A DNA stretch of 64,000 nucleotides from Gammaproteobacteria bacterium (GCA_965223825.1 OZ245018.1:1939792-2003791); one strand, 5' to 3'. Numbered from the stretch's first letter, positions 1,121 to 23,529 are shown. The notes: a model not told the origin generated them from the sequence alone. Numbers and translations: made by a program.

Positions 1121-2482
1121 ATGACTGACAATTCTATCCAATGCCCTGAGTGCGGCGCTGAAATCGAAATCTCCGATGTACTCTCGCGCAAGATCGAACA
1201 CGATCTCAAACAATCACTAAAAGCTGAACATGAACAAAAGCTTAAACATGCGCTAGAGCGACAAAAATCCCACGCTCAAAATGAGTTTGATCAGTCCTTG
1301 CAGCAACTCAAGAGTGAACTGGAAGGTCAAGCAAAACAACTCGAAGCCGCAAAAGCCAAAGAGCAAAATCTACAGCAGCAAGCGACCGATCTTGCCCGTC
1401 AACAAGCCGAGTTAGACACCACTGTCACAGCTCGATTAAAAGAAAAAGAAACACAGCTCAAAACACAATTAAGTGAAAAATTACGCGAAGAAAACTCATT
1501 ATTAATAAATGACTTAAAAGAACAACTGCAAGAGAAATCAACCGCAATAGATGAATCCCGCACACGTGAAATGGATTTGATCAAACAAGCACGCCAGCTC
1601 GAAGAAGAAAAGAAAAACATGCGTTTGGAAGTGGAGCGTCGTGTTGATGCGAGTCGTAAGGAACTCGAATCACGCATGGCTAAAGAGTTCGACGAAGCAT
1701 CGCGTTTGAAGTTGCTGGAAAAAGAAAAACAGATCGACGGTTTGCGTAAGTCGCTCGACGAAGCTCGACGAAAAAGTGAACAAGGATCAATGGAAACGCA
1801 AGGCGAAGTCTTAGAGCTTGATCTGGAAAACCGTCTACGCACCGCATTTCCTCATGATCAATTCACTCCCGTGGCAAAAGGGGCAAAAGGCGCGGACGTA
1901 ATCCAACAAGTGTTTGACGCGACCATGAATGAGTGTGGAAAAATCATCTGGGAAGTCAAAAACACTAAAGCCTTCTCGCCACTGTGGATTCAGAAACTCA
2001 AGGATGATCAACGATCGGCTGGCGCGAGTTTAGCCGTTCTGGTCAGTGTGGTATTGCCAGACTCGATCAAACAGTTTGGTCAACACGAAGGGATCTGGTT
2101 ATCCGATATTCACTCCTATTTACCGCTGGTGACTGCGTTGCGCGATCAGTTAATTCAAGTCAACTTTGCTCGTCAAGCCTCTGAAGGTAAAGGGGAAAAA
2201 ATGGAGTTAATGTTCAGCTATTTATCTGGCGATGAATTCCGCCAACGGATTGAAGCGATCGTTGAAGCCTTTAACGATATGCAGGACCAACTCAATAAGG
2301 AACGCCGTGCAATGGAAAAACTTTGGCGCGAGCGGGAAAAACAAATCCAACGTATCACCAATAATACGGTTGGGATGTATGGCGAAGTACGTGGAATAAT
2401 TGGCTCATCCGTCGCCAGCATTCCGTCATTGGAACTGGATCCGGACTTTGATGAGGACGATGATCAAAAACGACTCCTATAA
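1121..2482 (+). CDS. DUF2130-family protein: N-terminal C4 zinc ribbon (CPECGAEI) plus long coiled coil and conserved C-terminal domain
   Basis: 453-aa ORF; N-terminal CxxC, ~200 aa of heptad-rich K/E/Q coiled coil, C-terminal globular region with GKGADVIQQV motif typical of DUF2130. Confidence 0.7.
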   Translation: MTDNSIQCPECGAEIEISDVLSRKIEHDLKQSLKAEHEQKLKHALERQKSHAQNEFDQSLQQLKSELEGQAKQLEAAKAKEQNLQQQATDLARQQAELDTTVTARLKEKETQLKTQLSEKLREENSLLINDLKEQLQEKSTAIDESRTREMDLIKQARQLEEEKKNMRLEVERRVDASRKELESRMAKEFDEASRLKLLEKEKQIDGLRKSLDEARRKSEQGSMETQGEVLELDLENRLRTAFPHDQFTPVAKGAKGADVIQQVFDATMNECGKIIWEVKNTKAFSPLWIQKLKDDQRSAGASLAVLVSVVLPDSIKQFGQHEGIWLSDIHSYLPLVTALRDQLIQVNFARQASEGKGEKMELMFSYLSGDEFRQRIEAIVEAFNDMQDQLNKERRAMEKLWREREKQIQRITNNTVGMYGEVRGIIGSSVASIPSLELDPDFDEDDDQKRLL

Positions 2483-2969
2483 GCTGTTACCGAATCCAAT
2501 CTCAGCTGTGACAATTTTCCGTCCTAATACAGCAAGATAAGAACCATCTCGCACCCCTTGTTAATTTATTGACGTTTTACCCTCAAGTTTTCCCCCTCTA
2601 GGTCGTTAACTATTTCAGCAGTGATTGCAAATGGATATGCAGCTGCATGCTTGCGGTCATGGAGTGACTGCAAATACGGCCAAGGATGGCCACCCCATTT
2701 TCACATTCCCCCACGCCCGGTTCGTTTCTGGACGAAAAATGCTGATTAACATGATGTAAACGGTTACATCAGCAACACCTTCGAGCGAGTTCAAAACAAC
2801 ACACCGCCTTAAAAAGAGTTTATCGGATGATCTTCAACATCGCTGAGTTTTAGGGGTAAATAGCCATCAGGGATTATTTACAATTAACTTGGCACGAGTA
2901 ATGCTTTCTCTTTAGTGCACAACAATCACCCCCTGGTTGTTGTACTCCTCCCTTTGGGTTTATTTTTTA

Positions 2970-2996
2970 CGCCTCTCTTTTGAGAGGCGTTTTTTT
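2970..2996 (+). terminator. Rho-independent terminator (plus-strand orientation; hairpin cgcctctc-tttt-gagaggcg followed by T7)
   Basis: Perfect 8-bp GC-rich stem followed by TTTTTTT on + strand; on the minus strand the trailing tract is A-rich/mixed so it is a weaker terminator for mazG. Confidence 0.6.
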
Positions 2997-3789
2997 ATTT
3001 GTAAGATCGTTCATGCAGCTTCGCTTCATCCCACAAAGCATCCATCTCTTCTAACGTTGCTTGATCCGGATCAGAACCTTTTTCAGCTAAAGCGGATTCG
3101 ATGTAGCGAAAACGCCGTTCGAATTTATTATTTGATCGACGTAAAGCCTGTTCTGGATCAACATCCAAATGCCGTGCGAGATTCACGCAGACGCAGAGTA
3201 GATCACCCAATTCATCTTCGATCTTTTCTTTGCCCATCTGCTGGTCGATCGCTTCGTGAATTTCACCGACCTCTTCTTTCAACTTTTCCCAGACAGGTTC
3301 GATCGTTTGCCAGTCGAACCCAACGCGAGCTGCACGGCCCTGAATTTTCGCGGCACGTGTGAGCGCGGGTAAGTTGATCGGAATATTTTCCATTAGGCTC
3401 GTCAGCGCGTTACCTTTCGCTTCTCGTTCAGCCTGCTTTTTCGCTTCCCATTGCGCGTTCAAATCGACCTCATCAACCTTCTCACCGGCGAAAACATGCG
3501 GATGTCGATCCACTAATTTCCGACAGATTGCCGCGACAACATCATCAAACGTAAAGTGATTTTGCTCAGCTCCCAATTGAGCATAAAAAACAATCTGAAA
3601 AAGCAGATCGCCTAGTTCTTCAGGTAGTTCATCTAACTGATTGTTTTCAATCGCATCGACAACTTCATAAACTTCTTCAACAGTGTGCGGAATGATCGTC
3701 CGGTAAGTTTGTCTGAGATCCCACGGGCAGCCCGTTTCCGGATCGCGCAACTGCTGCATGATCTGCAGTAATTCCTCGATTTGACTCAT
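2995..3789 (-). CDS. mazG: Nucleoside triphosphate pyrophosphohydrolase MazG
   Basis: 264 aa; tandem MazG domains, N-terminal PETGCPWDLRQT, EEVYEVVDAIE and second EELGDLLFQIV/EEVGEIHEAI motifs typical of MazG. Confidence 0.9.
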   Translation of the reverse strand: MSQIEELLQIMQQLRDPETGCPWDLRQTYRTIIPHTVEEVYEVVDAIENNQLDELPEELGDLLFQIVFYAQLGAEQNHFTFDDVVAAICRKLVDRHPHVFAGEKVDEVDLNAQWEAKKQAEREAKGNALTSLMENIPINLPALTRAAKIQGRAARVGFDWQTIEPVWEKLKEEVGEIHEAIDQQMGKEKIEDELGDLLCVCVNLARHLDVDPEQALRRSNNKFERRFRYIESALAEKGSDPDQATLEEMDALWDEAKLHERSYK

Positions 3790-3843
3790 AGTGCAACCTG
3801 TTGTTTAAATGAGCGAAGATCATATCACCTGAAGGGCAGTCGA

Positions 3844-4419
3844 ATGGCAATCCCCTTGATATTACGATTAGATATTTCCGGTCTCCCAATGACTTGGATC
3901 CCGTGGGAAGATGCTGTCAGTCTTTACACGCGGGATATGGTTGCATGGACAGCCGGTGAGAGTATGTTCTCGATACACGGCGGTACGAACCGTCTCACAG
4001 GACAACGTTCGCATATCGACGTGAATTCCATTATCGCCGTGAGACGACAATCAAAAACACGCTTCCGCCCACGCACTATTCCCCCTTTAAATAACCGCGA
4101 ATTATTTTATCGAGACGGAAATTTATGCCTTTATTGCGGTCGTATACTCGCAGATAGTCAGCTTACTCGCGATCATGTAAAACCTGTCTCTCGTGGCGGT
4201 GAGAATGTCTGGTCAAATGTTGTGGCCGCCTGCAAAAGTTGCAACACCCGTAAAGGTTGTCGTCTACCTGAAGAGGCAAATATGCCCTTACTGGCCATCC
4301 CATATGAACCCAATTGGTCAGAATACCTTGCGCTATCAAACCGTCGAATTCTGGTAGACCAAATGGACTTCCTAAAGGGTCGGTTCTCACAAAGTGATCG
4401 GCTGCTTAGCTTGCTCTAA
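3844..4419 (+). CDS. HNH endonuclease-domain protein
   Basis: ORF 3781..4419, start taken at MAIPLIL (3844); HNH motif LCLYCGR...TRDHVKPVSRGGENVWSNVVAACKSCNTRKG (Cys4 + His-Asn-His). Confidence 0.75.
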   Translation: MAIPLILRLDISGLPMTWIPWEDAVSLYTRDMVAWTAGESMFSIHGGTNRLTGQRSHIDVNSIIAVRRQSKTRFRPRTIPPLNNRELFYRDGNLCLYCGRILADSQLTRDHVKPVSRGGENVWSNVVAACKSCNTRKGCRLPEEANMPLLAIPYEPNWSEYLALSNRRILVDQMDFLKGRFSQSDRLLSLL

Positions 4420-4564
4420 TCTTGTATCCAAGACGCGATCAATCAAACATAACCCCTAGCCACACCCACCGCCCGTCTGCGGATTGCGTACGATCAAGAA
4501 TATGCTTAAATAGCGACTGACTTTTTGAATGAATGTTTCACTCACCCCCTCAGGAAAGCATCCA

Positions 4565-5740
4565 ATGGATTTATTCACCTCGAGCCAACGCATGGCTGAT
4601 GTTCAAGCCCCGATCATCCCCGTGATCGGCGATCTCATTCACACCAATCCCGGCACGATCAGCCTCGCCCAAGGTGTGGTTTCCTATCCTCCGCCTGCGG
4701 CTGCGCTTGAGTCGCTGAGTACATTTGCTTCTGATGTGAGCAATCATCTCTACGGATCTTCCATCGGACAAGCTGATCTACTCAGCTTGATCAAAGAAAA
4801 GTTAGAACTGGAAAATCATATAAAATCTGATCTCACTGATCGCGTTATCGTCACTGCCGGCGCTAACATGGCCTTTCTCACGGCACTATTTGCGATCATT
4901 GATTCAGACGATGAAGTCATTCTTCCGACACCGTATTATTTTAATCATGAGATGGCGATCAAAATGTTGGATGCTTCGCCCGTTCTTGTGCCGACAGATG
5001 CACATTTTCAGCTTGATATTGATCAGATAAAAGCTGCGATAACTGATCGCACGCGGGCAATTGTCACCATTTCCCCGAATAATCCTTCGGGAGTGATGTA
5101 TCCCCGCGAGGTACTTGAGCAGATCAATCGATTATGCCGCGATCGTGGGCTGTATCATATTTGCGATGAGGCGTATGAATATTTTACCTATGGAGAAAAT
5201 ACACACTTTTCTCCTTTAAGCTCACCGGATTCTGTTGATCACACCATCGGTATCTATTCACTTTCTAAGGCTTATGGGTTTGCCAGTTGGCGAGTGGGTT
5301 ACATGGTGATTCCGCCGCAATTATTGTTACCCATCATGAAAGTGCAAGACACAAACCTCATTTGCAATAGCCTGATCGCGCAACACGCTGCTCAGGCTGC
5401 ATTGACCACCGGACGAACCTACTGCGACGCTCAGGTAAAACAATTAGATCACACACGTGAATTAATTCTGACAACACTCGAACCGTATCGCGAACAAGTA
5501 TCGTTTCCTGATCCACAAGGGGCTTTTTATTTAATGATGAAAGTACAAACCGATCTGCCTGATATGCTGATCGTCGAAAGATTAATTAAAGAACATCGCG
5601 TTGGGGTATTACCCGGTTCAGCATTTGGCTTAGAAAATGGCTGCTATTTGCGTGTGTCATTCGGCGCGTTGCAGGTCGATACGGCACTATCTGGTATTCA
5701 GCGATTAATGAATGGATTACAAGCTATCTGCTACAATTAA
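4565..5740 (+). CDS. Pyridoxal-phosphate-dependent aminotransferase (class I/II fold)
   Basis: ~390 aa; PLP-lysine context YSLSKAYGFASWRVGY, NNPSG and other class-I aminotransferase motifs. Confidence 0.85.
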   Translation: MDLFTSSQRMADVQAPIIPVIGDLIHTNPGTISLAQGVVSYPPPAAALESLSTFASDVSNHLYGSSIGQADLLSLIKEKLELENHIKSDLTDRVIVTAGANMAFLTALFAIIDSDDEVILPTPYYFNHEMAIKMLDASPVLVPTDAHFQLDIDQIKAAITDRTRAIVTISPNNPSGVMYPREVLEQINRLCRDRGLYHICDEAYEYFTYGENTHFSPLSSPDSVDHTIGIYSLSKAYGFASWRVGYMVIPPQLLLPIMKVQDTNLICNSLIAQHAAQAALTTGRTYCDAQVKQLDHTRELILTTLEPYREQVSFPDPQGAFYLMMKVQTDLPDMLIVERLIKEHRVGVLPGSAFGLENGCYLRVSFGALQVDTALSGIQRLMNGLQAICYN

Positions 5741-5825
5741 GAACGCTGAATCGAACTTTTATAATCGTAACAGTCAACTAATAGAATAATAACAACGTAC
5801 CCACAACGAATTACAGGATTTAACC

Positions 5826-6233
5826 ATGCGTAAGCTTTCTAAAATACTCGTCGCCAGCCTGTCGGCGGCTTGCCTCAACTCCCTTAGTTTTAACGTCACC
5901 GCTGCTGATGCCGAAGGCAATTATGCCGTTTGGGGTGAAGGTGGCCTTTCTTGCTTTCAATATTCAAAATTACGTGCTGAAGGGAATGACGACAAAGTAA
6001 AAGCATTTTTGCGTGGTTATCTGACCGCTTACAACACGGTAAGTGGTGACACATATAGCATTACCGGTCCAGTGAAAATGCCACAAGCTTTGGAAATTAT
6101 TGATGAACATTGTGACGAAAAAGCCATCGACAGTTTTGATCGTGCTATACAAATGATGATCACCAATGTCGAAGACAACCGTTACCGCACACCCAATCAA
6201 AAAGGTGTCGTTGGTGGTTGGGGCAAACAGTAA
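5826..6233 (+). CDS. Small secreted/periplasmic protein, hypothetical
   Basis: 135 aa; N-terminal signal peptide MRKLSKILVASLSAACLNSLSFNVTAADA; no recognisable catalytic motif. Confidence 0.55.
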   Translation: MRKLSKILVASLSAACLNSLSFNVTAADAEGNYAVWGEGGLSCFQYSKLRAEGNDDKVKAFLRGYLTAYNTVSGDTYSITGPVKMPQALEIIDEHCDEKAIDSFDRAIQMMITNVEDNRYRTPNQKGVVGGWGKQ

Positions 6234-6254
6234 TGTCTATGGATTAACCTGAAC

Positions 6255-6899
6255 ATGATCACATCAGACTCGATCAGGGCCAGTTTTGACATGATGGAGG
6301 CCATAGCCTTTGAAGATGAAAATCACATTGACGATTTACATCTCACACCAGCCGCAGTCTTAATTGGATTGATCGATTCTGATGATTCAACCGGGTTTAG
6401 TATTTTACTCACAACGCGGACACAACACTTACATCATCACCCCGGTCAGATCAGTTTGCCCGGTGGTCGGCTCGATGCGACAGATAGCTCGCTTATGCAC
6501 ACCGCATTGCGCGAAACACATGAGGAAATTGGAGTCAGCAATCAGTACATTGACATGCTTGGTGGACTACAAACTTACAAAAGTGTGACGGGTTTCATCA
6601 TCACACCTTTCGTCGCTTACATTCGTCCGGGGTATGATTTGAAACCAGACCCTTTCGAAGTCGATGATGTATTCAGCGTTCCATTAAGTACCGTCCTGAA
6701 CCCGCTAAACCACCGAAAGATCCTACGCGATAATGCTATGAGTACAGAAAATGAACAACATGATTTCTATTTTGAAATAAACTATGGTACAAAGCGGATC
6801 TGGGGGGTAACCGCCGGTATATTAGTAAGTTTTTACAAGAGGTTAAGGGAGAAACATCCTCTATATTGTGAATTGGTGCCTCAATTTAAATCGCAATGA
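6255..6899 (+). CDS. NUDIX hydrolase, CoA pyrophosphatase-like (NudL family)
   Basis: NUDIX box GQISLPGGRLDATDSSLMHTALRETHEEIGV; upstream LLTTR motif typical of CoA-pyrophosphatase subgroup. Confidence 0.8.
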   Translation: MITSDSIRASFDMMEAIAFEDENHIDDLHLTPAAVLIGLIDSDDSTGFSILLTTRTQHLHHHPGQISLPGGRLDATDSSLMHTALRETHEEIGVSNQYIDMLGGLQTYKSVTGFIITPFVAYIRPGYDLKPDPFEVDDVFSVPLSTVLNPLNHRKILRDNAMSTENEQHDFYFEINYGTKRIWGVTAGILVSFYKRLREKHPLYCELVPQFKSQ

Positions 6900-13842: not shown

Positions 13843-14814
13843 TTAATGTCCTTTATGTGCACCCTCGTTTTTCAGCGCTTTCGCTTGTTCTACCCAATGC
13901 TCGCGTCTGATCGTGCCTTGACTGTTTAACTCAACATCAAACCGTTCGACATCTTTCTCATTCCACTTTGCGATATCACTAAAACGCGTCACACCGAGAC
14001 GACGTAGTACGCTCACATGCTCCTCAGCCAAGCCGCGAATTTTTTGTAAATCATCCTCTTTCTTACGCAAGAACTGATCGACAATAGACGGTTTCTTTTG
14101 ATTTTCTAACGAGGCCTTTAGCTGTGATATTTCGTTGTCTTTTTTCGCGATCTCATCGAATAATTCTTGCACACGATTTTGTAGACGGCCAATACGGCTA
14201 ATCGCTAACTCTGGATCCGTATTACCGCTCAATGCGGCTAATTGCAATGACTCGCCCGTTTGTGATTCAAGCTCTGCAATGCGCCGGTCGCGCTCAAGAA
14301 CACCCATGCGCGCTTGTTCAAACGCATTCTTTAAGACACGGCTTTGTTCTGTAATCTCATCTAGATCGCCTTCAAACCGACTTAGTTGAGATCGGATTTC
14401 GGTTAATTCTGTTTTCAATTTCGCGTTATCTTTCATTTGTGCATCGAGTGCATTGCGGGTCGTTTTCAGGGAATTATTAGCAATGTCACTTTCACGAGTC
14501 AGTGTTTGGATCTGCTGCTTACGCTCGTTGTAGCGCATATTCGCATTTTGTAATTCCTGTTGAATTCGTGACAAATCGGCCTCTTCCAAGTGGTTTTGAG
14601 CCTTTTCAGCCTCTAACTGTTCGCTTAACCGTATGCGTTGATCTCGCGTTGCATCCAACTCTTTTTGGATCGTATGCATGTGTCCCATTAGCGCTACTTC
14701 TGCATCTTCCAGTTTATGCTTCCAAGCTGATCGCGTGAATAACCATCCGCACAACCACGCTAATGCTGCAGTCGCCAACAGATAGAGTACGATTTCCCCT
14801 ATCAGATAATTCAT
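13843..14814 (-). CDS. N-terminally membrane-anchored long coiled-coil protein, hypothetical
   Basis: 323 aa; one N-terminal TM, ~230 aa of E/Q/R/L-rich coiled coil, conserved basic C-terminal tail; start abuts stop of upstream BON gene (14814/14816). Confidence 0.6.
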   Translation of the reverse strand: MNYLIGEIVLYLLATAALAWLCGWLFTRSAWKHKLEDAEVALMGHMHTIQKELDATRDQRIRLSEQLEAEKAQNHLEEADLSRIQQELQNANMRYNERKQQIQTLTRESDIANNSLKTTRNALDAQMKDNAKLKTELTEIRSQLSRFEGDLDEITEQSRVLKNAFEQARMGVLERDRRIAELESQTGESLQLAALSGNTDPELAISRIGRLQNRVQELFDEIAKKDNEISQLKASLENQKKPSIVDQFLRKKEDDLQKIRGLAEEHVSVLRRLGVTRFSDIAKWNEKDVERFDVELNSQGTIRREHWVEQAKALKNEGAHKGH

Positions 14815-14815
14815 T

Positions 14816-15556
14816 TCACTTTCTCCCCACCCTCAATTGCTTGTCCAACGTAAATTGCATTGGTAAGTTTGCAACGGCTTCATCAAAAGCCCGCTGAGCC
14901 TGCTCACCAGAGACAATACCTGACACACGAATCTGATTACCGATGTAAGCCAATTGCCCTTCTTCTACCCATTGTAGAAATGGGATCATCAAAGGCAAAT
15001 CCTGCAAGTACCATACCGGTTTTTCACTTAGTCTATCAACAGTTACGCTATATACATGATCTGTCGGTTCAAGCAACGAGGTAAACGTCTTCGCCAGATC
15101 ATTTTTAATTTTTCCCGTCGGCACAGTGCCATTAATTGCGACACCTAATCTATCCTTACTGACAAACAGATCAGATGAATACACTTCCGCTCGAGCACTA
15201 CTTTGAATGATTGTTTTTTCGGGTGAGGATGGGGATGGCGTATCAGCGATTACATTGCTTTCAACACTCAAGCGCTCTTGATGAAACGCGATCGTTCGTT
15301 GATAGATCACGCGCGCACCGTTGTTTTTTGCAATCAAGGCGGCTTCTTTGACGGAATCGGCAGGTCCCGTCAATAACATATCCAAGCCGCTCGTTTCGAC
15401 ACGAACAACGGATAGTTGTTCGTCAGCGAGTGCTCGAACAACCTTACCTTGAAGTCTGTCTTCCAGCTGTTGCGGCGCGTACTTGAGCGTTAGCCCCATC
15501 GCCAGCAACAGCAGAAGCAGACAAAACCACTTCACCAACTTACCTACCCCACCCAT
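14816..15556 (-). CDS. Membrane-anchored periplasmic protein with two BON-like domains, hypothetical
   Basis: 246 aa; N-terminal signal/anchor FCLLLLLLAMGL; BON-like segments (LSVVRVETSGLDMLLTGPADSVKEAALIAKNNGARVIYQ; IRVSGIVSGEQAQRAFDEAVANLP). Confidence 0.55.
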   Translation of the reverse strand: MGGVGKLVKWFCLLLLLLAMGLTLKYAPQQLEDRLQGKVVRALADEQLSVVRVETSGLDMLLTGPADSVKEAALIAKNNGARVIYQRTIAFHQERLSVESNVIADTPSPSSPEKTIIQSSARAEVYSSDLFVSKDRLGVAINGTVPTGKIKNDLAKTFTSLLEPTDHVYSVTVDRLSEKPVWYLQDLPLMIPFLQWVEEGQLAYIGNQIRVSGIVSGEQAQRAFDEAVANLPMQFTLDKQLRVGRK

Positions 15557-19948: not shown

Positions 19949-20545
19949 ATGACCGATAAACACCACGAAGCACACATGCAAGAAACCAAAGCCACCATGG
20001 ATGATCGGATAAAAAGTGCAAAAGATAAAAAGGGTCTGATCTTAATCTTAACCGGCGACGGCAAAGGCAAAAGCAGTTCTGGCTTCGGCATGGTCGCGCG
20101 ATCACTCGGCCACAAAATGCATTGCGGTGTCGTGCAATTTATTAAAGGCGCGTTCAGCACCGGCGAAGAAAAATTCTACAAACGCTTCCCCGATGAAGTG
20201 GAATATCACGTCATGGGCGAAGGCTACACCTGGGAAACCCAAAACCGCGATCAAGATGTTGCAGCAGCCGAACGCGGCTGGGCTGTCGCACAAAAAATGC
20301 TGCAAGATCCGAACTTTGATCTCGTCTTACTCGATGAATTAAATATTGTGTTGGATTTTAATTATCTCGATATTGATAAAGTGATTGCTGATCTACAAGC
20401 CACCCCCCCCATGCAACACGTCGTCATCACTGGCCGAGGCGCACCACAAAAACTGATCGAGATCGCGGATACGGTAAGTGAAATTCAAGTGATCAAACAT
20501 GCGTTCGATCAGGGGATTACGGCGCAGAAAGGAGTGGAGCTTTAA
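19949..20545 (+). CDS. cobO: Cob(I)yrinic acid a,c-diamide adenosyltransferase (CobO/BtuR)
   Basis: 198 aa; P-loop GDGKGKSSSGFG, VVQFIKG, ITGRGAP motifs of BtuR/CobO. Confidence 0.9.
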   Translation: MTDKHHEAHMQETKATMDDRIKSAKDKKGLILILTGDGKGKSSSGFGMVARSLGHKMHCGVVQFIKGAFSTGEEKFYKRFPDEVEYHVMGEGYTWETQNRDQDVAAAERGWAVAQKMLQDPNFDLVLLDELNIVLDFNYLDIDKVIADLQATPPMQHVVITGRGAPQKLIEIADTVSEIQVIKHAFDQGITAQKGVEL

Positions 20546-23094
20546 TCATTTTCACATCCGTCCTTCAGCTGCTTGCTCAATCTGTTTAAATCTAGTTGGA
20601 TCTGATCACGCAAACCTTGCCATTGAGTGCCAGGTTTTGCAAACTGTTCGATAAGAGTAAAAGCACGACGAGACAACCTGTATGCTTTCTCATACTGCTC
20701 TAGCGCTTCAAGTCGATCAGATTTATTCGATAGGCTCCTCGCCAAGTACGGGGTGTAAGCGGCAGCGTTCGTCTGTACCAGGGGTTCGTAAAGTTCGACC
20801 GACCGTTCACTCGCCGTCAGCGCGTCGTCATCACGTCCCACCGCCGAAAGTTGAATAGAAAGATTATTCAGGCTCAACGCCAAGTCCGGGGTGTAAGCGG
20901 CAGCGTTCGTCTGTACCAGGGGTTCGTAAAGTTCGACCGACCGTTCACTCGCCGTCAGCGCGTCGTCATCACGTCCCACCGCCGAAAGTTGATTAGAAAG
21001 AGTATTCAGGCTCCTCGCCAAGTCCGGGGTGTAAGCGGCAGCGTTCGTCTGTACCAAGGGTTCGTAAAGTTCGACCGACCGTTCACTCGCCGTCAGCGCG
21101 TCGTCATCACGTCCCACCGCCGAAAGTTGATTAGAAAGAGTATTCAGGCTCCTCGCCAAGTCCGGGGTGTAAGCGGCAGCGTTCGTCTGTACCAAGGGTT
21201 CGTAAAGTTCGACCGACCGTTCACTCGCCGTCAGCGCGTCGTCATCACGTCCCACCGCCGAAAGTTGATTAGAAAGAGTATTCAGGCTCCTCGCCAAGTC
21301 CGGGGTGTAAGCGGCAGCGTTCGTCTGTACCAAGGGTTCGTAAAGTTCGACCGACCGTTCACTCGCCGTCAGCGCGTCGTCATCACGTCCCACCGCCGAA
21401 AGTCGAATAGAAAGGTTATTCAGGCTCCTCGCCAAGTCCGGGGTGTAAGCGGCAGCGTTCGTCTGTACCAAGGGTTCGTAAAGTTCGACCGACCGTTCAC
21501 TCGCCGTCAGCGCGTCGTCATCACGTCCCACCGCCGAAAGTCGAATAGAAAGAGAATTCAGGCTCCTCGCCAAGTCCGGGGTGTAAGCGGCAGCGTTCGT
21601 CTGTACCAAGGGTTCGTAAAGTTCGACCGACCGTTCAATCGCCGCCAGCGCGTCGTCATCACGTCCCACCGCCGAAAGTTGAATAGAAAGATTATTCAAT
21701 ATCCTGGCTTGTTCTGCTTCCTCACCTCCTTCTGTCAGAAGGGTTTTACTTACTGCAATGCTTAAATTCAACAAGTTTGTTTCGATATCATTTCGACATA
21801 ATCCAAGATCCAGCTTTCGACAGCGTTCTGGTTCTTGCACGCAGAAAGCTTCAAGACTGCCAAGTGGTAATGGAGAGGCCAGTATTTGTCCTGCATCATA
21901 AGCGAGGCGGCCTAACATCGAAGTCGCATGATCAATTTGCGCTGCACTAACCAACGCACTGTAAAGTAATTTGCCCGCAGCTTCGTTTTGAGAAAGGACG
22001 TTAGCAAGCAATGACGCAGCGAGTAGGTCAGGCTCCATCGGCTTGACCTTGCCTGGCTTGATCGTACCGTGATCAGACGTTTCCGCAGCTTGCCAGTAGC
22101 TCAGTTTTTCCGGTGATTCAAGATCAAAATACGATAAGCCCGTTTCATCCGCAAATGCAGCCATTTGCACTTTGCTAAATCCCTGTGTTATGGCGGAGAG
22201 GGCAATCAACACCTCGAGTGATTGCTCTGTATAATGGAATGCGCTTGCTTCTTTTCTAATTCGAATAAGTTCGCGTTTGACTAATTCATTGATGACCTCA
22301 GCACCCGTTAAATGCCGGTTGCTTTCATCCTCAATCAGATTGAATGCATAGGCTAGAATAAATAAAGGGGTTTGGTTATGTTCGCTTTGCTGCAACCACT
22401 GGAAAAAATCTTCCCGATCCAAGCCTGGCATTTTTGCCACTTCAGATCTTTTTTGTAGCATCCCCTTACAAGCAGAATCGAAAAACTCCCAATTTTTTCT
22501 CTTTTCATCTAAGGCAGAGAGCGGGAGTTGTAACGAAAATTCAGAAGCGGTTTGATCAAAAAGAGTTTGGATGTTTGTCGTTTTTCGGGAAAGAAACACT
22601 ATCCTAAGAGGCGATTCAGGTTCTTCGCTGTCATAAATCGCACGAAGTAAGGTTTGGATCTGGCTATGCCGCTCTTCAGGATAATCAATGATGAAAAGTA
22701 AGCCTTTATCACCTGTGGCATAGGCTGCATCGTTCTCATCATAATCTAATTGCCCTGCTGCCCAACCACGCGCTCTCGCTTCCTCCGCAAATTCAAACGC
22801 CAGGCGTGTTTTACCCACTCCACCTTCACCGGTAATGATGCCATAAGCGATACGTAAATCGGAGTCTAGCCAATCATGGAGTGTTTTTAATTCATCTTCT
22901 CGACCGAATAACGGGGTTAAACGACTCTGCCAGCGAAGTAGCGAAGTCACTGAGTTTGTCACACTGTTGGGTTTAAATGGGATCTGGAGAGTTTTAGGCT
23001 TGTCTACGGAGCCAAATGAAACTGTGCCGTAATCCCCACTGATAAAAATACCAGAGGAATTTTTTACATTAATCGCTCTTTTAGAATCGAGCAT
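20542..23094 (-). CDS. STAND-class P-loop NTPase (NB-ARC/NACHT-like) with C-terminal TPR-like repeat array and a short N-terminal signalling motif
   Basis: 850 aa; N-term motif RAINVKNSSGIFISGDYGTVSF; Walker A GEGGVGKTRLA, Walker B LLFIIDYPE; helical linker; ≥9 TPR-like 46-aa repeats of which 7 are near-identical; 1-nt spacing to upstream small gene. Confidence 0.85.
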   Translation of the reverse strand: MLDSKRAINVKNSSGIFISGDYGTVSFGSVDKPKTLQIPFKPNSVTNSVTSLLRWQSRLTPLFGREDELKTLHDWLDSDLRIAYGIITGEGGVGKTRLAFEFAEEARARGWAAGQLDYDENDAAYATGDKGLLFIIDYPEERHSQIQTLLRAIYDSEEPESPLRIVFLSRKTTNIQTLFDQTASEFSLQLPLSALDEKRKNWEFFDSACKGMLQKRSEVAKMPGLDREDFFQWLQQSEHNQTPLFILAYAFNLIEDESNRHLTGAEVINELVKRELIRIRKEASAFHYTEQSLEVLIALSAITQGFSKVQMAAFADETGLSYFDLESPEKLSYWQAAETSDHGTIKPGKVKPMEPDLLAASLLANVLSQNEAAGKLLYSALVSAAQIDHATSMLGRLAYDAGQILASPLPLGSLEAFCVQEPERCRKLDLGLCRNDIETNLLNLSIAVSKTLLTEGGEEAEQARILNNLSIQLSAVGRDDDALAAIERSVELYEPLVQTNAAAYTPDLARSLNSLSIRLSAVGRDDDALTASERSVELYEPLVQTNAAAYTPDLARSLNNLSIRLSAVGRDDDALTASERSVELYEPLVQTNAAAYTPDLARSLNTLSNQLSAVGRDDDALTASERSVELYEPLVQTNAAAYTPDLARSLNTLSNQLSAVGRDDDALTASERSVELYEPLVQTNAAAYTPDLARSLNTLSNQLSAVGRDDDALTASERSVELYEPLVQTNAAAYTPDLALSLNNLSIQLSAVGRDDDALTASERSVELYEPLVQTNAAAYTPYLARSLSNKSDRLEALEQYEKAYRLSRRAFTLIEQFAKPGTQWQGLRDQIQLDLNRLSKQLKDGCEND
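20736..21700. repeat. Seven tandem near-identical 138-bp (46-codon) repeats inside the STAND NTPase gene
   Basis: Direct inspection: unit cgccaagtccggggtgtaagcggcagcgttcgtctgtacca(a/g)gggttcgtaaagttcgaccgaccgttcactcgccgtcagcgcgtcgtcatcacgtcccaccgccgaaagt(t/c)ga(t/a)tagaaag... recurring every 138 bp with only a few substitutions. Confidence 0.9.
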
Positions 23095-23095
23095 G

Positions 23096-23401
23096 TTATG
23101 CCGTGTCCGATAAATAGGTCAGGAGCGCAATAATGACCGCAGCCACCCCGCAGAGCCAAGTAAGAAAAGCACCTAACGATTTCCACCAAGGCTGATCGTT
23201 TGTTTGTTCTGATGTGTGATCTGTCATGTGTATTTCAGAAACTGAAACATGGTCACCAGACACAAAAGTGCCTTTAGCGTTTTTTACGTTGATGCTCCGA
23301 GAAGCGCTTCGGGTGATGTGAAAAAGGAAAAAAAGAAATAGCAAAAATGCGAGTAGGTAGAAAAGGTCGTGCTGGTCGAGATTATCAATCAAGCTTTGCA
23401 T
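23096..23401 (-). CDS. Small two-TM membrane protein carrying the same ~25-aa motif as the N-terminus of the downstream STAND NTPase (candidate effector/partner)
   Basis: 101 aa; strong RBS TAAGGAGGG 6 nt before ATG; TM1 FYLLAFLLFLFFLF, motif RSINVKNAKGTFVSGDHVSVSE, TM2 LGAFLTWLCGVAAVIIALLTYL. Confidence 0.7.
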   Translation of the reverse strand: MQSLIDNLDQHDLFYLLAFLLFLFFLFHITRSASRSINVKNAKGTFVSGDHVSVSEIHMTDHTSEQTNDQPWWKSLGAFLTWLCGVAAVIIALLTYLSDTA

Positions 23402-23529
23402 ATTGCCCTCCTTATGAGAGCAATATACTAAGAAGATTAGTTACCATACAAGCTAATCGTTGACAAAAAATGTTAGGAATAAAGTTATTTGACGAGTGAA
23501 TCTATTGACTTACTTTACTGTCAAAAATC

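Follow-up and report, generated by a model that had tools for sequence, protein, structure and literature searches.

A membrane hairpin and a STAND NTPase-TPR protein that share a BASS6-like motif: a candidate two-gene NLR-like module in Gammaproteobacteria

The gene pair and its shared motif

The stretch of DNA analyzed here (64,000 nucleotides from a Gammaproteobacteria bacterium, GCA_965223825.1 OZ245018.1:1939792-2003791; hereafter referred to as the window) contains two adjacent genes whose products, a small membrane protein and a large STAND NTPase-TPR protein, carry copies of the same short motif. Calling of open reading frames (ORFs) places a 101-aa ORF at positions 23401-23096 and an 850-aa ORF at positions 23094-20542, both on the minus strand, and a single base (C) is found between the TAA stop codon of the former and the ATG start codon of the latter. 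The ORFs and the junction sequence thus confirm the two minus-strand genes, 1 nt apart, that a first-pass annotation of the window had reported. From its sequence, this arrangement is operon-like, and the small gene and the NTPase gene are probably translationally coupled. The features of the locus are given below, with the evidence for each in brackets; TM stands for transmembrane.

23406-23413, minus strand: Shine-Dalgarno-like sequence AAGGAGGG, 4 nt upstream of the ATG of the small gene (sequence reading)
23096-23401, minus strand: small gene, encoding the 101-aa two-TM hairpin protein P0053, the proposed effector (ORF call, ribosome-binding site)
23306-23374, minus strand: TM helix 1 of the small protein, residues about 10-32 (AlphaFold2 helix, hydropathy)
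23234-23299, minus strand: effector-side motif RSINVKNAKGTFVSGDHVSVSE, residues 35-56, within the basic loop that links the TM helices, divergent BASS6-like (BLASTP, profile hidden Markov model)
23102-23188, minus strand: TM helix 2 of the small protein, residues about 72-100 (AlphaFold2 helix, hydropathy)
20542-23094, minus strand: 850-aa STAND NTPase-TPR gene, the proposed sensor (ORF, Pfam, relatives, AlphaFold2, Foldseek)
23014-23079, minus strand: sensor-side motif RAINVKNSSGIFISGDYGTVSF, residues 6-27 (BLASTP, profile of the small proteins)
22807-22830, minus strand: Walker A motif GEGGVGKT, residues 89-96 (sequence, conservation in alignments)
22675-22701, minus strand: Walker B region LLFIIDYPE, residues 132-140 (sequence, conservation among 47 sequences)
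20732-21698, minus strand: seven TPR units of 138 bp (46 aa) with 97% DNA identity (TRF, Pfam)

A BLASTP comparison of the small with the large protein aligned residues 33-55 of the former with residues 4-26 of the latter, with 13/23 identical and 19/23 positive positions (E 2e-7 for this single comparison); the homologous motif had been noted before within the first 30 residues of the NTPase, with a count of about 14 of 24 that comes close enough to ours. The loops of 64 aligned small proteins yield the consensus (basic)-R-G/S-V-x-V-(G)-G/K-D/N-N-x-G-I/V-I/V-V/I-T/S/A-G-x-V-x-G-D/N-V/I-x. G44 and G49 of the small protein are invariant. A profile hidden Markov model (HMM) built from the loop motifs of these 64 small-protein relatives only gave a score of 27.9 bits to the N-terminus of the window NTPase and, when run at E<0.01 against every ORF of 40 aa or more from the six reading frames of the 64-kb window, detected the two paired proteins only. 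This score and this selectivity bear out the earlier view that the likeness of the two motif copies exceeds chance. The same HMM also detects the N-termini of the NTPases encoded at the loci of the relatives described below.

Hydrophobic segments span residues 10-33 and 75-100 of the small protein, and AlphaFold2 models helices at residues 10-32 and 72-100 (block-mean pLDDT 80-87) that are connected by an unstructured loop (pLDDT 45-58). Hydropathy and structure prediction therefore agree with the two TM helices flanking the motif that had been proposed at the outset, and exactly two hydrophobic segments were found by hydropathy in 54 of 63 family members. The motif begins only about four residues past the first TM helix. 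Per family protein, the mean number of Lys and Arg residues is 0.31 in the N-terminal tail, 5.9 in the loop and 0.48 in the C-terminal tail. According to the positive-inside rule of von Heijne, basic segments of membrane proteins stay in the cytoplasm; because the loop is basic, it should be located there, on the same side of the membrane as the N-terminus of the NTPase. Judged by its sequence, the small protein is presumably an inner-membrane hairpin whose short acidic tails point outward and whose basic loop faces the cell interior. Neither the small protein nor the motif belongs to a family found in Pfam, NCBIfam and PADLOC scans, and a profile search of PDB sequences returned no relative of the small protein; the partner of the NTPase is a tiny integral membrane protein and not one of Bell type, as had been suggested. 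The matches of the small protein to Tir_receptor_N and 2TM_IV are weak and probably reflect composition.

The NTPase matches AAA_16 in Pfam with 34.3 bits (cut-off 32.6), TPR_10 (E 3e-24) and TPR_12 (E 2e-22), as well as nSTAND3 and ATPase_2 (E 0.005 each). Pfam models for NB-ARC, NACHT and DNA-binding domains (LuxR-type HTH, OmpR/SARP) gave no match at E up to 1, and no other effector domain was found by Pfam in the window NTPase. Residues G89, G92, G94 and K95 of the Walker A motif are invariant in one alignment of relatives (A1); in another (A5), comprising 47 sequences, G94 and K95 are invariant and G92 is conserved in at least 90%. Among 47 aligned sequences, D137, Y138 and E140 of the Walker B region are invariant, and P139 is nearly so. 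These findings support the initial reading of the protein as a P-loop STAND NTPase with the sequences GEGGVGKT and LLFIIDYPE and a TPR array, and the protein displays the traits of STAND/NLR-like proteins: a Walker A motif, a Walker B motif of the hhhhD type, helical domains and a C-terminal repeat sensor. AlphaFold2 modeled residues 1-546 from an alignment of 47 sequences with a pLDDT of 89.7 and a pTM of 0.88; residues 1-29, which contain the motif, fall below a pLDDT of 50 in this otherwise confident model. Among solved structures in the PDB, Foldseek ranked the Avs5/AVAST5 SIR2-STAND filament (E 4e-7), SAMD9 and the Roq1 resistosome best, followed by AAA+ proteins; the TM-scores of these matches are low (0.27-0.37), which is to be expected when multi-domain proteins are compared in different states. 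Going by sequence and model, we class the protein as a STAND NTPase that is close to antiviral STANDs and lies outside NB-ARC and NACHT.

The seven TPR units differ almost only within the sequence LN[NST]LS[IN][QR]L, at the two or three residues after 'LN.LS', and the same positions vary in the TPR units of a related protein (locus L081; LNNLS[VC][HRD]L). The repeat pattern was noted within positions 4291-6696 of that locus and also within positions 2434-6222 of locus L012. Such near-identical units with fixed variable positions recall the hypervariable repeats of fungal NLRs, and their sequences suggest that the sensor diversifies rapidly by repeat shuffling. In four Logan assemblies (L008-L011; SRR313667xx runs), an identical hairpin gene is present, and the NTPase is broken in all four of these short-read assemblies at 480 aa, where the TPR repeats start. 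TPR arrays are thus systematically shortened in metagenome assemblies, and members of the family will often look too short. A 304-aa ORF on the plus strand of the window (20851-21765), antisense to the TPR array and itself perfectly repetitive, is an artefact of the tandem repeats and not a gene.

Relatives of the pair, their surroundings and the motif class

With the NTPase module (residues 1-453) as query, we found 52 NTPase relatives. Relatives with 30-41% identity bear the N-terminal motif; the closest ones (36-41%) start with a motif of the same kind (e.g., MLGRLFGGGRSVNAKQSNGVFISGDGNNVSISYG), and more distant ones carry the variant ...NxGxIxTGxVxGDV... In a large group of these NTPases (Nitrosomonas, Nitrosospira, Nitrotoga, Nitrococcus; 32-37% identity), an N-terminal TIR domain of about 150-200 residues replaces the motif. 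In other systems, TIR domains are known to act as immune effectors.

When the small protein alone served as query, a word-based homology search returned only the protein itself, and its relatives were gathered via an alignment of the neighbors at related loci. Among 1.84 billion cluster representatives, a profile built from 22 small proteins then recovered 49 at E<1e-3, all of them 69-153 aa in length; by these sequence matches, the family is rare but coherent. The pair is present at 15 distinct loci (the window, L001, L003/L073, L004, L005, L013, L069, L070, L072, L074-L077, L079 and L081), L073 having the same gene pair as L003 and being counted once; a metagenome scan with a closer alignment set (A4) gave seven loci. 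At each of the 15 loci with a readable neighbor, a gene for a 97-137-aa protein (TM helix, motif, polar linker, TM helix) is positioned directly upstream of an NTPase gene of the same family. The spacing of the two genes ranges from a 4-nt overlap to about +45 nt, the exception being L013 with about 147 nt. These loci are mostly metagenomic, and the named ones belong to Gammaproteobacteria: a Chromatiales metagenome-assembled genome (MAG; L004), Ca. Thiodiazotropha (L005) and a Gammaproteobacteria MAG (L013). The same short motif thus recurs at 15 loci at the N-terminus of an NLR-like protein and in the product of the adjacent collinear gene, as in BASS gene pairs; the partner departs from such pairs in that it has no Bell or other globular effector domain and in that its motif is internal (residues 35-56 of 101) and not C-terminal. 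The possibilities raised with the first-pass annotation, that the motif could be absent from homologues, or that the small ORF could lack conservation or never adjoin STAND NTPases, are countered by the NTPase relatives with 30-41% identity that carry the motif, by the 49 representatives of the small protein, and by its position upstream of the NTPase at the 15 loci. No small gene is found upstream of a TIR-fused Nitrosospira protein (1262 aa, L012), the sole TIR locus checked, nor upstream of P0036, an NTPase relative without a clear motif.

In 12 pairs, the motifs of cognate partners are identical at 10.9/23 positions on average, as compared with 7.6/23 in non-cognate combinations (permutation p = 3e-5). 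Two motif subfamilies (...FI[AS]GDxNxx[IV]S and ...I[IV]TGxVxGDV) switch together on both partners, and the motif of one subfamily has an extra conserved strand (xVxGDVxQ). As seen in these sequences, the covariation resembles that of co-evolving homotypic interaction motifs and is by itself no proof of an amyloid.

Ten NLR-associated BASS classes have been defined, with their sequences listed in Table S2 of the respective study (Dyrka et al., 2020; bioRxiv 10.1101/2020.01.06.895854). By eye, the BASS6 entries GERSVAVgGDNSGTISTGDGA and AAGERSVAVRDNRGIVQTGDG fit our family consensus in register. When 24 BASS6 sequences were scored with the loop-motif HMM, the highest values were 32.3, 22.8, 21.8, 18.6 and 17.4 bits (median 9.7), and 480 shuffles of BASS6 sequences reached a maximum of 9.2 bits; the classes BASS1-5 and 7-10 scored at most 6.4 bits, below their own shuffles. 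Reciprocally, with an HMM of the 24 BASS6 sequences, 13 of 67 small proteins scored higher than the best of 790 shuffles (10.4 bits), and 19/67 exceeded 6.3 bits, a level reached by one of the 790 shuffles. As far as sequence profiles tell, the family motif belongs to BASS6 specifically, and the copies of the window, which diverge from BASS6 (KN for GxN, S for T), are tied in only through the family alignment. This specific match strengthens the reading of the motif as amyloid-signaling-like with which the work began. BASS7 (INFKNANPTISGN) looked like the window motif by eye and was ruled out by a profile score of at most 3.8 bits. The small protein P0106 (L077) has two motif copies with a Pro/Ala-rich linker between them, and its NTPase has one; the small protein of the window has a single copy. 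Pseudorepeats on the effector side and a single copy in the NLR have been described for BASS1 and BASS6 (Dyrka et al., 2020; bioRxiv 10.1101/2020.01.06.895854).

On one side, the pair is flanked by genes for a TonB-dependent receptor, Peripla_BP_2 and CobA, and on the other by those for a formate/nitrite transporter, isocitrate lyase and ClpA. The neighbor annotation thereby agrees with the B12-uptake genes and the formate/nitrite transporter that had been named as flanks. A related genome (L076; Logan SRR14511799, 4001-5955) is syntenic (ClpS, isocitrate lyase, formate/nitrite transporter, hairpin, NTPase, CobA, Peripla_BP_2). Of the accessory insertion that had been suspected here, the location between these flanks holds; a very recent insertion does not, since the pair occupies the same position in L076. 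Conservation of the neighborhood, which the first-pass annotation had recommended to analyze, is seen in the form of a hairpin/NTPase pair kept at 15 loci and syntenic in L076. The hairpin gene of L076 is intact, and its NTPase, with about two TPR units, is cut by a stop codon into 184 and 360 aa, which is explained either by decay of this copy or by an error in the assembly or the sequence. Going by the sequences, the seven-unit TPR array of the window is likely a recent expansion. In the window, the NTPase gene and the convergent cobA/btuR gene (19949-20545, plus strand) overlap by 4 nt at their stop codons (20542-20545), which leaves no room for a terminator between them; in L076, cobA and the NTPase gene are spaced by 15 nt.

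No other conserved neighbor of the pair was seen across the loci examined. At L005 (Ca. Thiodiazotropha, GCA_040506095.1), an Abi_alpha (PF14337) gene (5514-6239) lies directly downstream of the pair and is the sole defense-associated neighbor among these loci. The hairpin/NTPase gap of about 147 nt at L013 (2854-3000) contains an imperfect palindrome, possibly a REP-like element, whose arms (2880-2916 and 2937-2973) are 78% complementary. Just upstream, an ORF (1940-2470) resembles, by the appearance of its sequence, a REP-associated Y1 transposase. At L001, a gene with a Pfam Y1_Tnp match follows the pair.

A plasmid search gave two distant Rhizobium matches only. One of these loci (L078, 2501-5828; Rhizobium sp. 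SL42 plasmid NZ_CP063399.1) encodes a distant NTPase relative of 967 aa (26% identity) that starts with MDDEMRSITVKNILAFGNVSISG; no two-TM gene is located upstream of it. The downstream gene encodes a 137-aa helical protein without Pfam match that starts with MEIAIW... and ends with ...GITIRNIAVEKLDISDIKAKS. This protein may be a Bell-like partner with a C-terminal motif copy; a BLASTP comparison of its end (ITIRNIAVEKLDIS) with the NTPase (ITVKNILAFGNVSIS) gave an E-value of 0.75, which is not significant, and we do not claim a shared motif. The pattern GG[VL]GK[TS]RLA was discarded as a family marker; it is a generic Walker A motif that retrieved three true relatives among 57 loci listed, most of them unrelated actinobacterial NLRs. 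Elsewhere in the window (13843-15556, minus strand), two neighboring ORFs (323 and 246 aa) lack a Pfam match at E up to 1e-5.

A proposed cell-death mechanism and its alternatives

We favor, with a probability of roughly 0.6, the view that the pair constitutes a two-gene NLR-like module for regulated cell death of the abortive-infection type. In this proposal, the TPR array of the 850-aa STAND sensor would bind a trigger, probably a phage protein or another foreign protein, and the 101-aa hairpin, already inserted into the inner membrane, would act as executioner. Both motif copies would be disordered in the resting monomers. Ligand binding and NTP-dependent oligomerization would gather the N-termini of the sensor, whose motifs could then take up a cross-beta (beta-arch) fold; this fold would template the loop motifs of the hairpins and thereby align many TM hairpins in the membrane. 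The resulting assembly would permeabilize or depolarize the membrane, so that the cell would die before the invader completes its cycle. The strongest argument for the hairpin as the output is that, within one clade of NTPases, the motif together with a separate hairpin gene alternates with a fused TIR domain; the same reasoning has been applied earlier to fungal and bacterial amyloid pairs. The G/N/V/I-rich alternating pattern of the motif, its disorder in the monomer models and its class membership are indirect evidence of amyloid formation; amyloid formation, the direction of signaling, membrane damage and a role of the pair in defense are inferred. To our knowledge, every amyloid-controlled killer described so far (HET-S, HELLP, Bell, Bab) stays soluble until its activation. 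At slightly less than even odds, and hence tentatively, we would regard the hairpin as a new class of amyloid-gated membrane executioner, an 'amyloid-triggered holin' that is pre-inserted and harmless until the sensor templates its loop. If true, BASS-type signaling operates in unicellular marine Gammaproteobacteria with a STAND clade that is neither NB-ARC nor NACHT.

Several observations weigh against this proposal. The window pair lies outside any recognizable defense island and has housekeeping genes as neighbors, and the pair was not found on viral contigs. PADLOC gave no match to the NTPase and only a weak one to the small protein (2TM_IV, E 0.0025). The two motif copies of the window themselves reach no more than -0.1 and 4.2 bits with the BASS6 HMM, the motif covariation is mostly that between the two subfamilies, within which cognate pairs are not consistently the best match, and the stop codon in the NTPase of L076 implies that the system can decay. 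Only BASS1 and BASS3, and not BASS6, were experimentally tested in the preprint that defined these classes (bioRxiv 10.1101/2020.01.06.895854). Furthermore, with a motif that starts about four residues after the first TM helix, stacking in register at a spacing of 4.8 A would cause clashes with the neighboring TM helices; the distortion caused by a stack beside a TM helix may itself be damaging, or the interaction may not be a classical amyloid.

The juxtamembrane position of the motif would also suit a tether, in which non-amyloid beta-strand pairing anchors the NTPase-TPR protein to the inner membrane and the hairpin is an anchor and not a killer. We judge such a tether unlikely, and it might serve the surveillance of injection or envelope events or non-immune signaling. 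Conservation of the pair and motif covariation fit any homotypic interaction equally well, and a tiny hairpin without an obvious catalytic or pore-forming domain amid housekeeping genes is what an anchor might look like; yet a tether would leave the NTPase without an effector, whereas its relatives carry a TIR domain at exactly that position. In addition, the family motif matches that of BASS6, a class whose definition rests on NLR/death-effector pairs, and duplicated motif copies in the small protein are typical of templated amyloid effectors. The TIR exchange, which argues for the N-terminal position as the output side, likewise renders quite improbable a reversed or inhibitory logic, with the hairpin as a membrane-stress sensor or as an inhibitor of the NTPase and with some other output, such as NTP depletion or an unlinked partner. 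Although the direction of signaling is not fixed by the data and the short periplasmic tails of the hairpin could sense envelope damage, a TPR array of near-identical units with fixed variable positions is an obvious ligand sensor, and, as noted above, the loci examined show no other conserved neighbor.

AAA_16 combined with TPR is also the core architecture of transcriptional regulators of the AfsR/MalT type, and the NTPase might on this ground be taken for such a regulator beside an unrelated small membrane ORF, with a motif likeness that arose by chance. We consider this explanation effectively refuted: a motif similarity with an E-value of 2e-7 recurs at 15 loci with covariation, no DNA-binding domain is detected at E up to 1, and relatives carry TIR domains. 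The DNA-binding domain that the first-pass annotation had named as the mark of such a regulator is accordingly missing from the Pfam results. Its suggestion to compare the proteins with family profiles led to a mixed outcome; AAA_16 and the BASS6 motif class match, NB-ARC and NACHT do not.

Relation to known systems

The principle of amyloid signaling between an NLR and its effector, the BASS6 class and one experimentally proven antiphage case are already known, and BASS motifs are already known with effectors other than Bell (alpha/beta-hydrolase, TIR2, CHAT, guanylate cyclase). The label of an undescribed module that the pair had been given hence applies to the type of effector and to the NTPase clade, and not to the motif family and the signaling principle. 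Amyloid templating in immune signaling is established in fungi and animals; in bacteria, it has been demonstrated only very recently, for one antiphage system. Our literature search found neither an effector consisting only of a two-TM hairpin nor a BASS motif within a cytoplasmic loop, and it likewise did not find this STAND clade or a mainly gammaproteobacterial BASS distribution; such absence is not proof. The screen by Dyrka et al. needed a Bell domain together with an NB-ARC or NACHT match and could therefore not have found the hairpin family. BASS6-type signaling would extend to Gammaproteobacteria and to a STAND clade that screens based on NB-ARC and NACHT miss, and published surveys may consequently underestimate bacterial amyloid signaling. 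An effector of about 100 residues whose killing part would consist of only two TM helices would offer a very tractable model for the path from cross-beta assembly to membrane damage, and its internal, juxtamembrane motif constrains structural models of activation. The whole pair, two genes in about 2.9 kb, is small enough for direct work in E. coli.

The Bell/NLR pairs of Dyrka et al. resemble the system discussed here in having adjacent collinear genes (with a gap of at most 10 bp there), in a short motif, rich in G/N/V/I, that sits at the very N-terminus of an NTPase-TPR protein and recurs in the small partner, and in 'all-in-one' relatives in which a fused effector domain takes the place of the motif. 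Our family motif is in register with BASS6, RSVAV(G)GDNSGxIxTGD, and double copies on the effector side occur occasionally in both. The Bell partner, however, is a bundle of five helices, about 120-140 aa long, whose motif is C-terminal, whereas the partner here is a two-TM hairpin of about 100 aa with the motif between its helices. Unlike the NLRs of that study, the NTPase is not detected as NB-ARC or NACHT, and the named hosts are Gammaproteobacteria, whereas nearly all published Bell/NLR pairs are from filamentous Actinobacteria and Cyanobacteria.

In Bab/Agp, an antiphage abortive-infection system of E. coli, a shared BASS11 motif passes the signal of T5 infection on to a small killer that targets the membrane (Ibarlosa et al., 2024; bioRxiv 10.1101/2024.11.07.622273), and the system thus provides a precedent for relaying a phage signal to such a killer through a shared BASS motif. 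Like our pair, Bab/Agp is a proteobacterial two-gene module in which a protein of about 100 aa with a hydrophobic segment (an N-terminal hydrophobic helix in Bab) shares a motif with the N-terminus of a large TPR sensor, and membrane-targeted cell death is the proposed outcome in both. Agp, however, has the architecture TPR-GreA/B-C-PIN and is not a STAND NTPase, and Bab is a soluble 'Babybell' helical domain that moves to the membrane and has a C-terminal motif, unlike the hairpin with its internal one. The motif of Bab/Agp is classed as BASS11.

HET-S/NWD2 of Podospora anserina offers a further parallel, in that the N-terminal motif of an NLR templates a membrane killer encoded by the adjacent gene, as we propose here, and in that the sensor repeats are similar to each other with few variable positions. 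HET-S is soluble, with a HeLo domain and a TM helix that is set free only once templating has taken place, whereas the hairpin is predicted to be pre-inserted; moreover, the repeats are WD in NWD2 and TPR here, and the motif families are unrelated. With Avs/AVAST and TIR-STAND proteins, the NTPase shares the STAND core and the C-terminal TPR sensor, with TIR relatives at 32-37% identity, but the effector is a separate membrane protein coupled by a short motif and not a fused domain. Class II holins and the 2TM effectors of CBASS and Pycsar have no detectable homology to the hairpin (best PADLOC match 2TM_IV, E 0.0025); they have in common with it the format of a minimal two-helix membrane protein whose oligomerization is expected to damage the membrane, and they differ in the trigger, which would be motif templating here and not a nucleotide signal or a concentration threshold.

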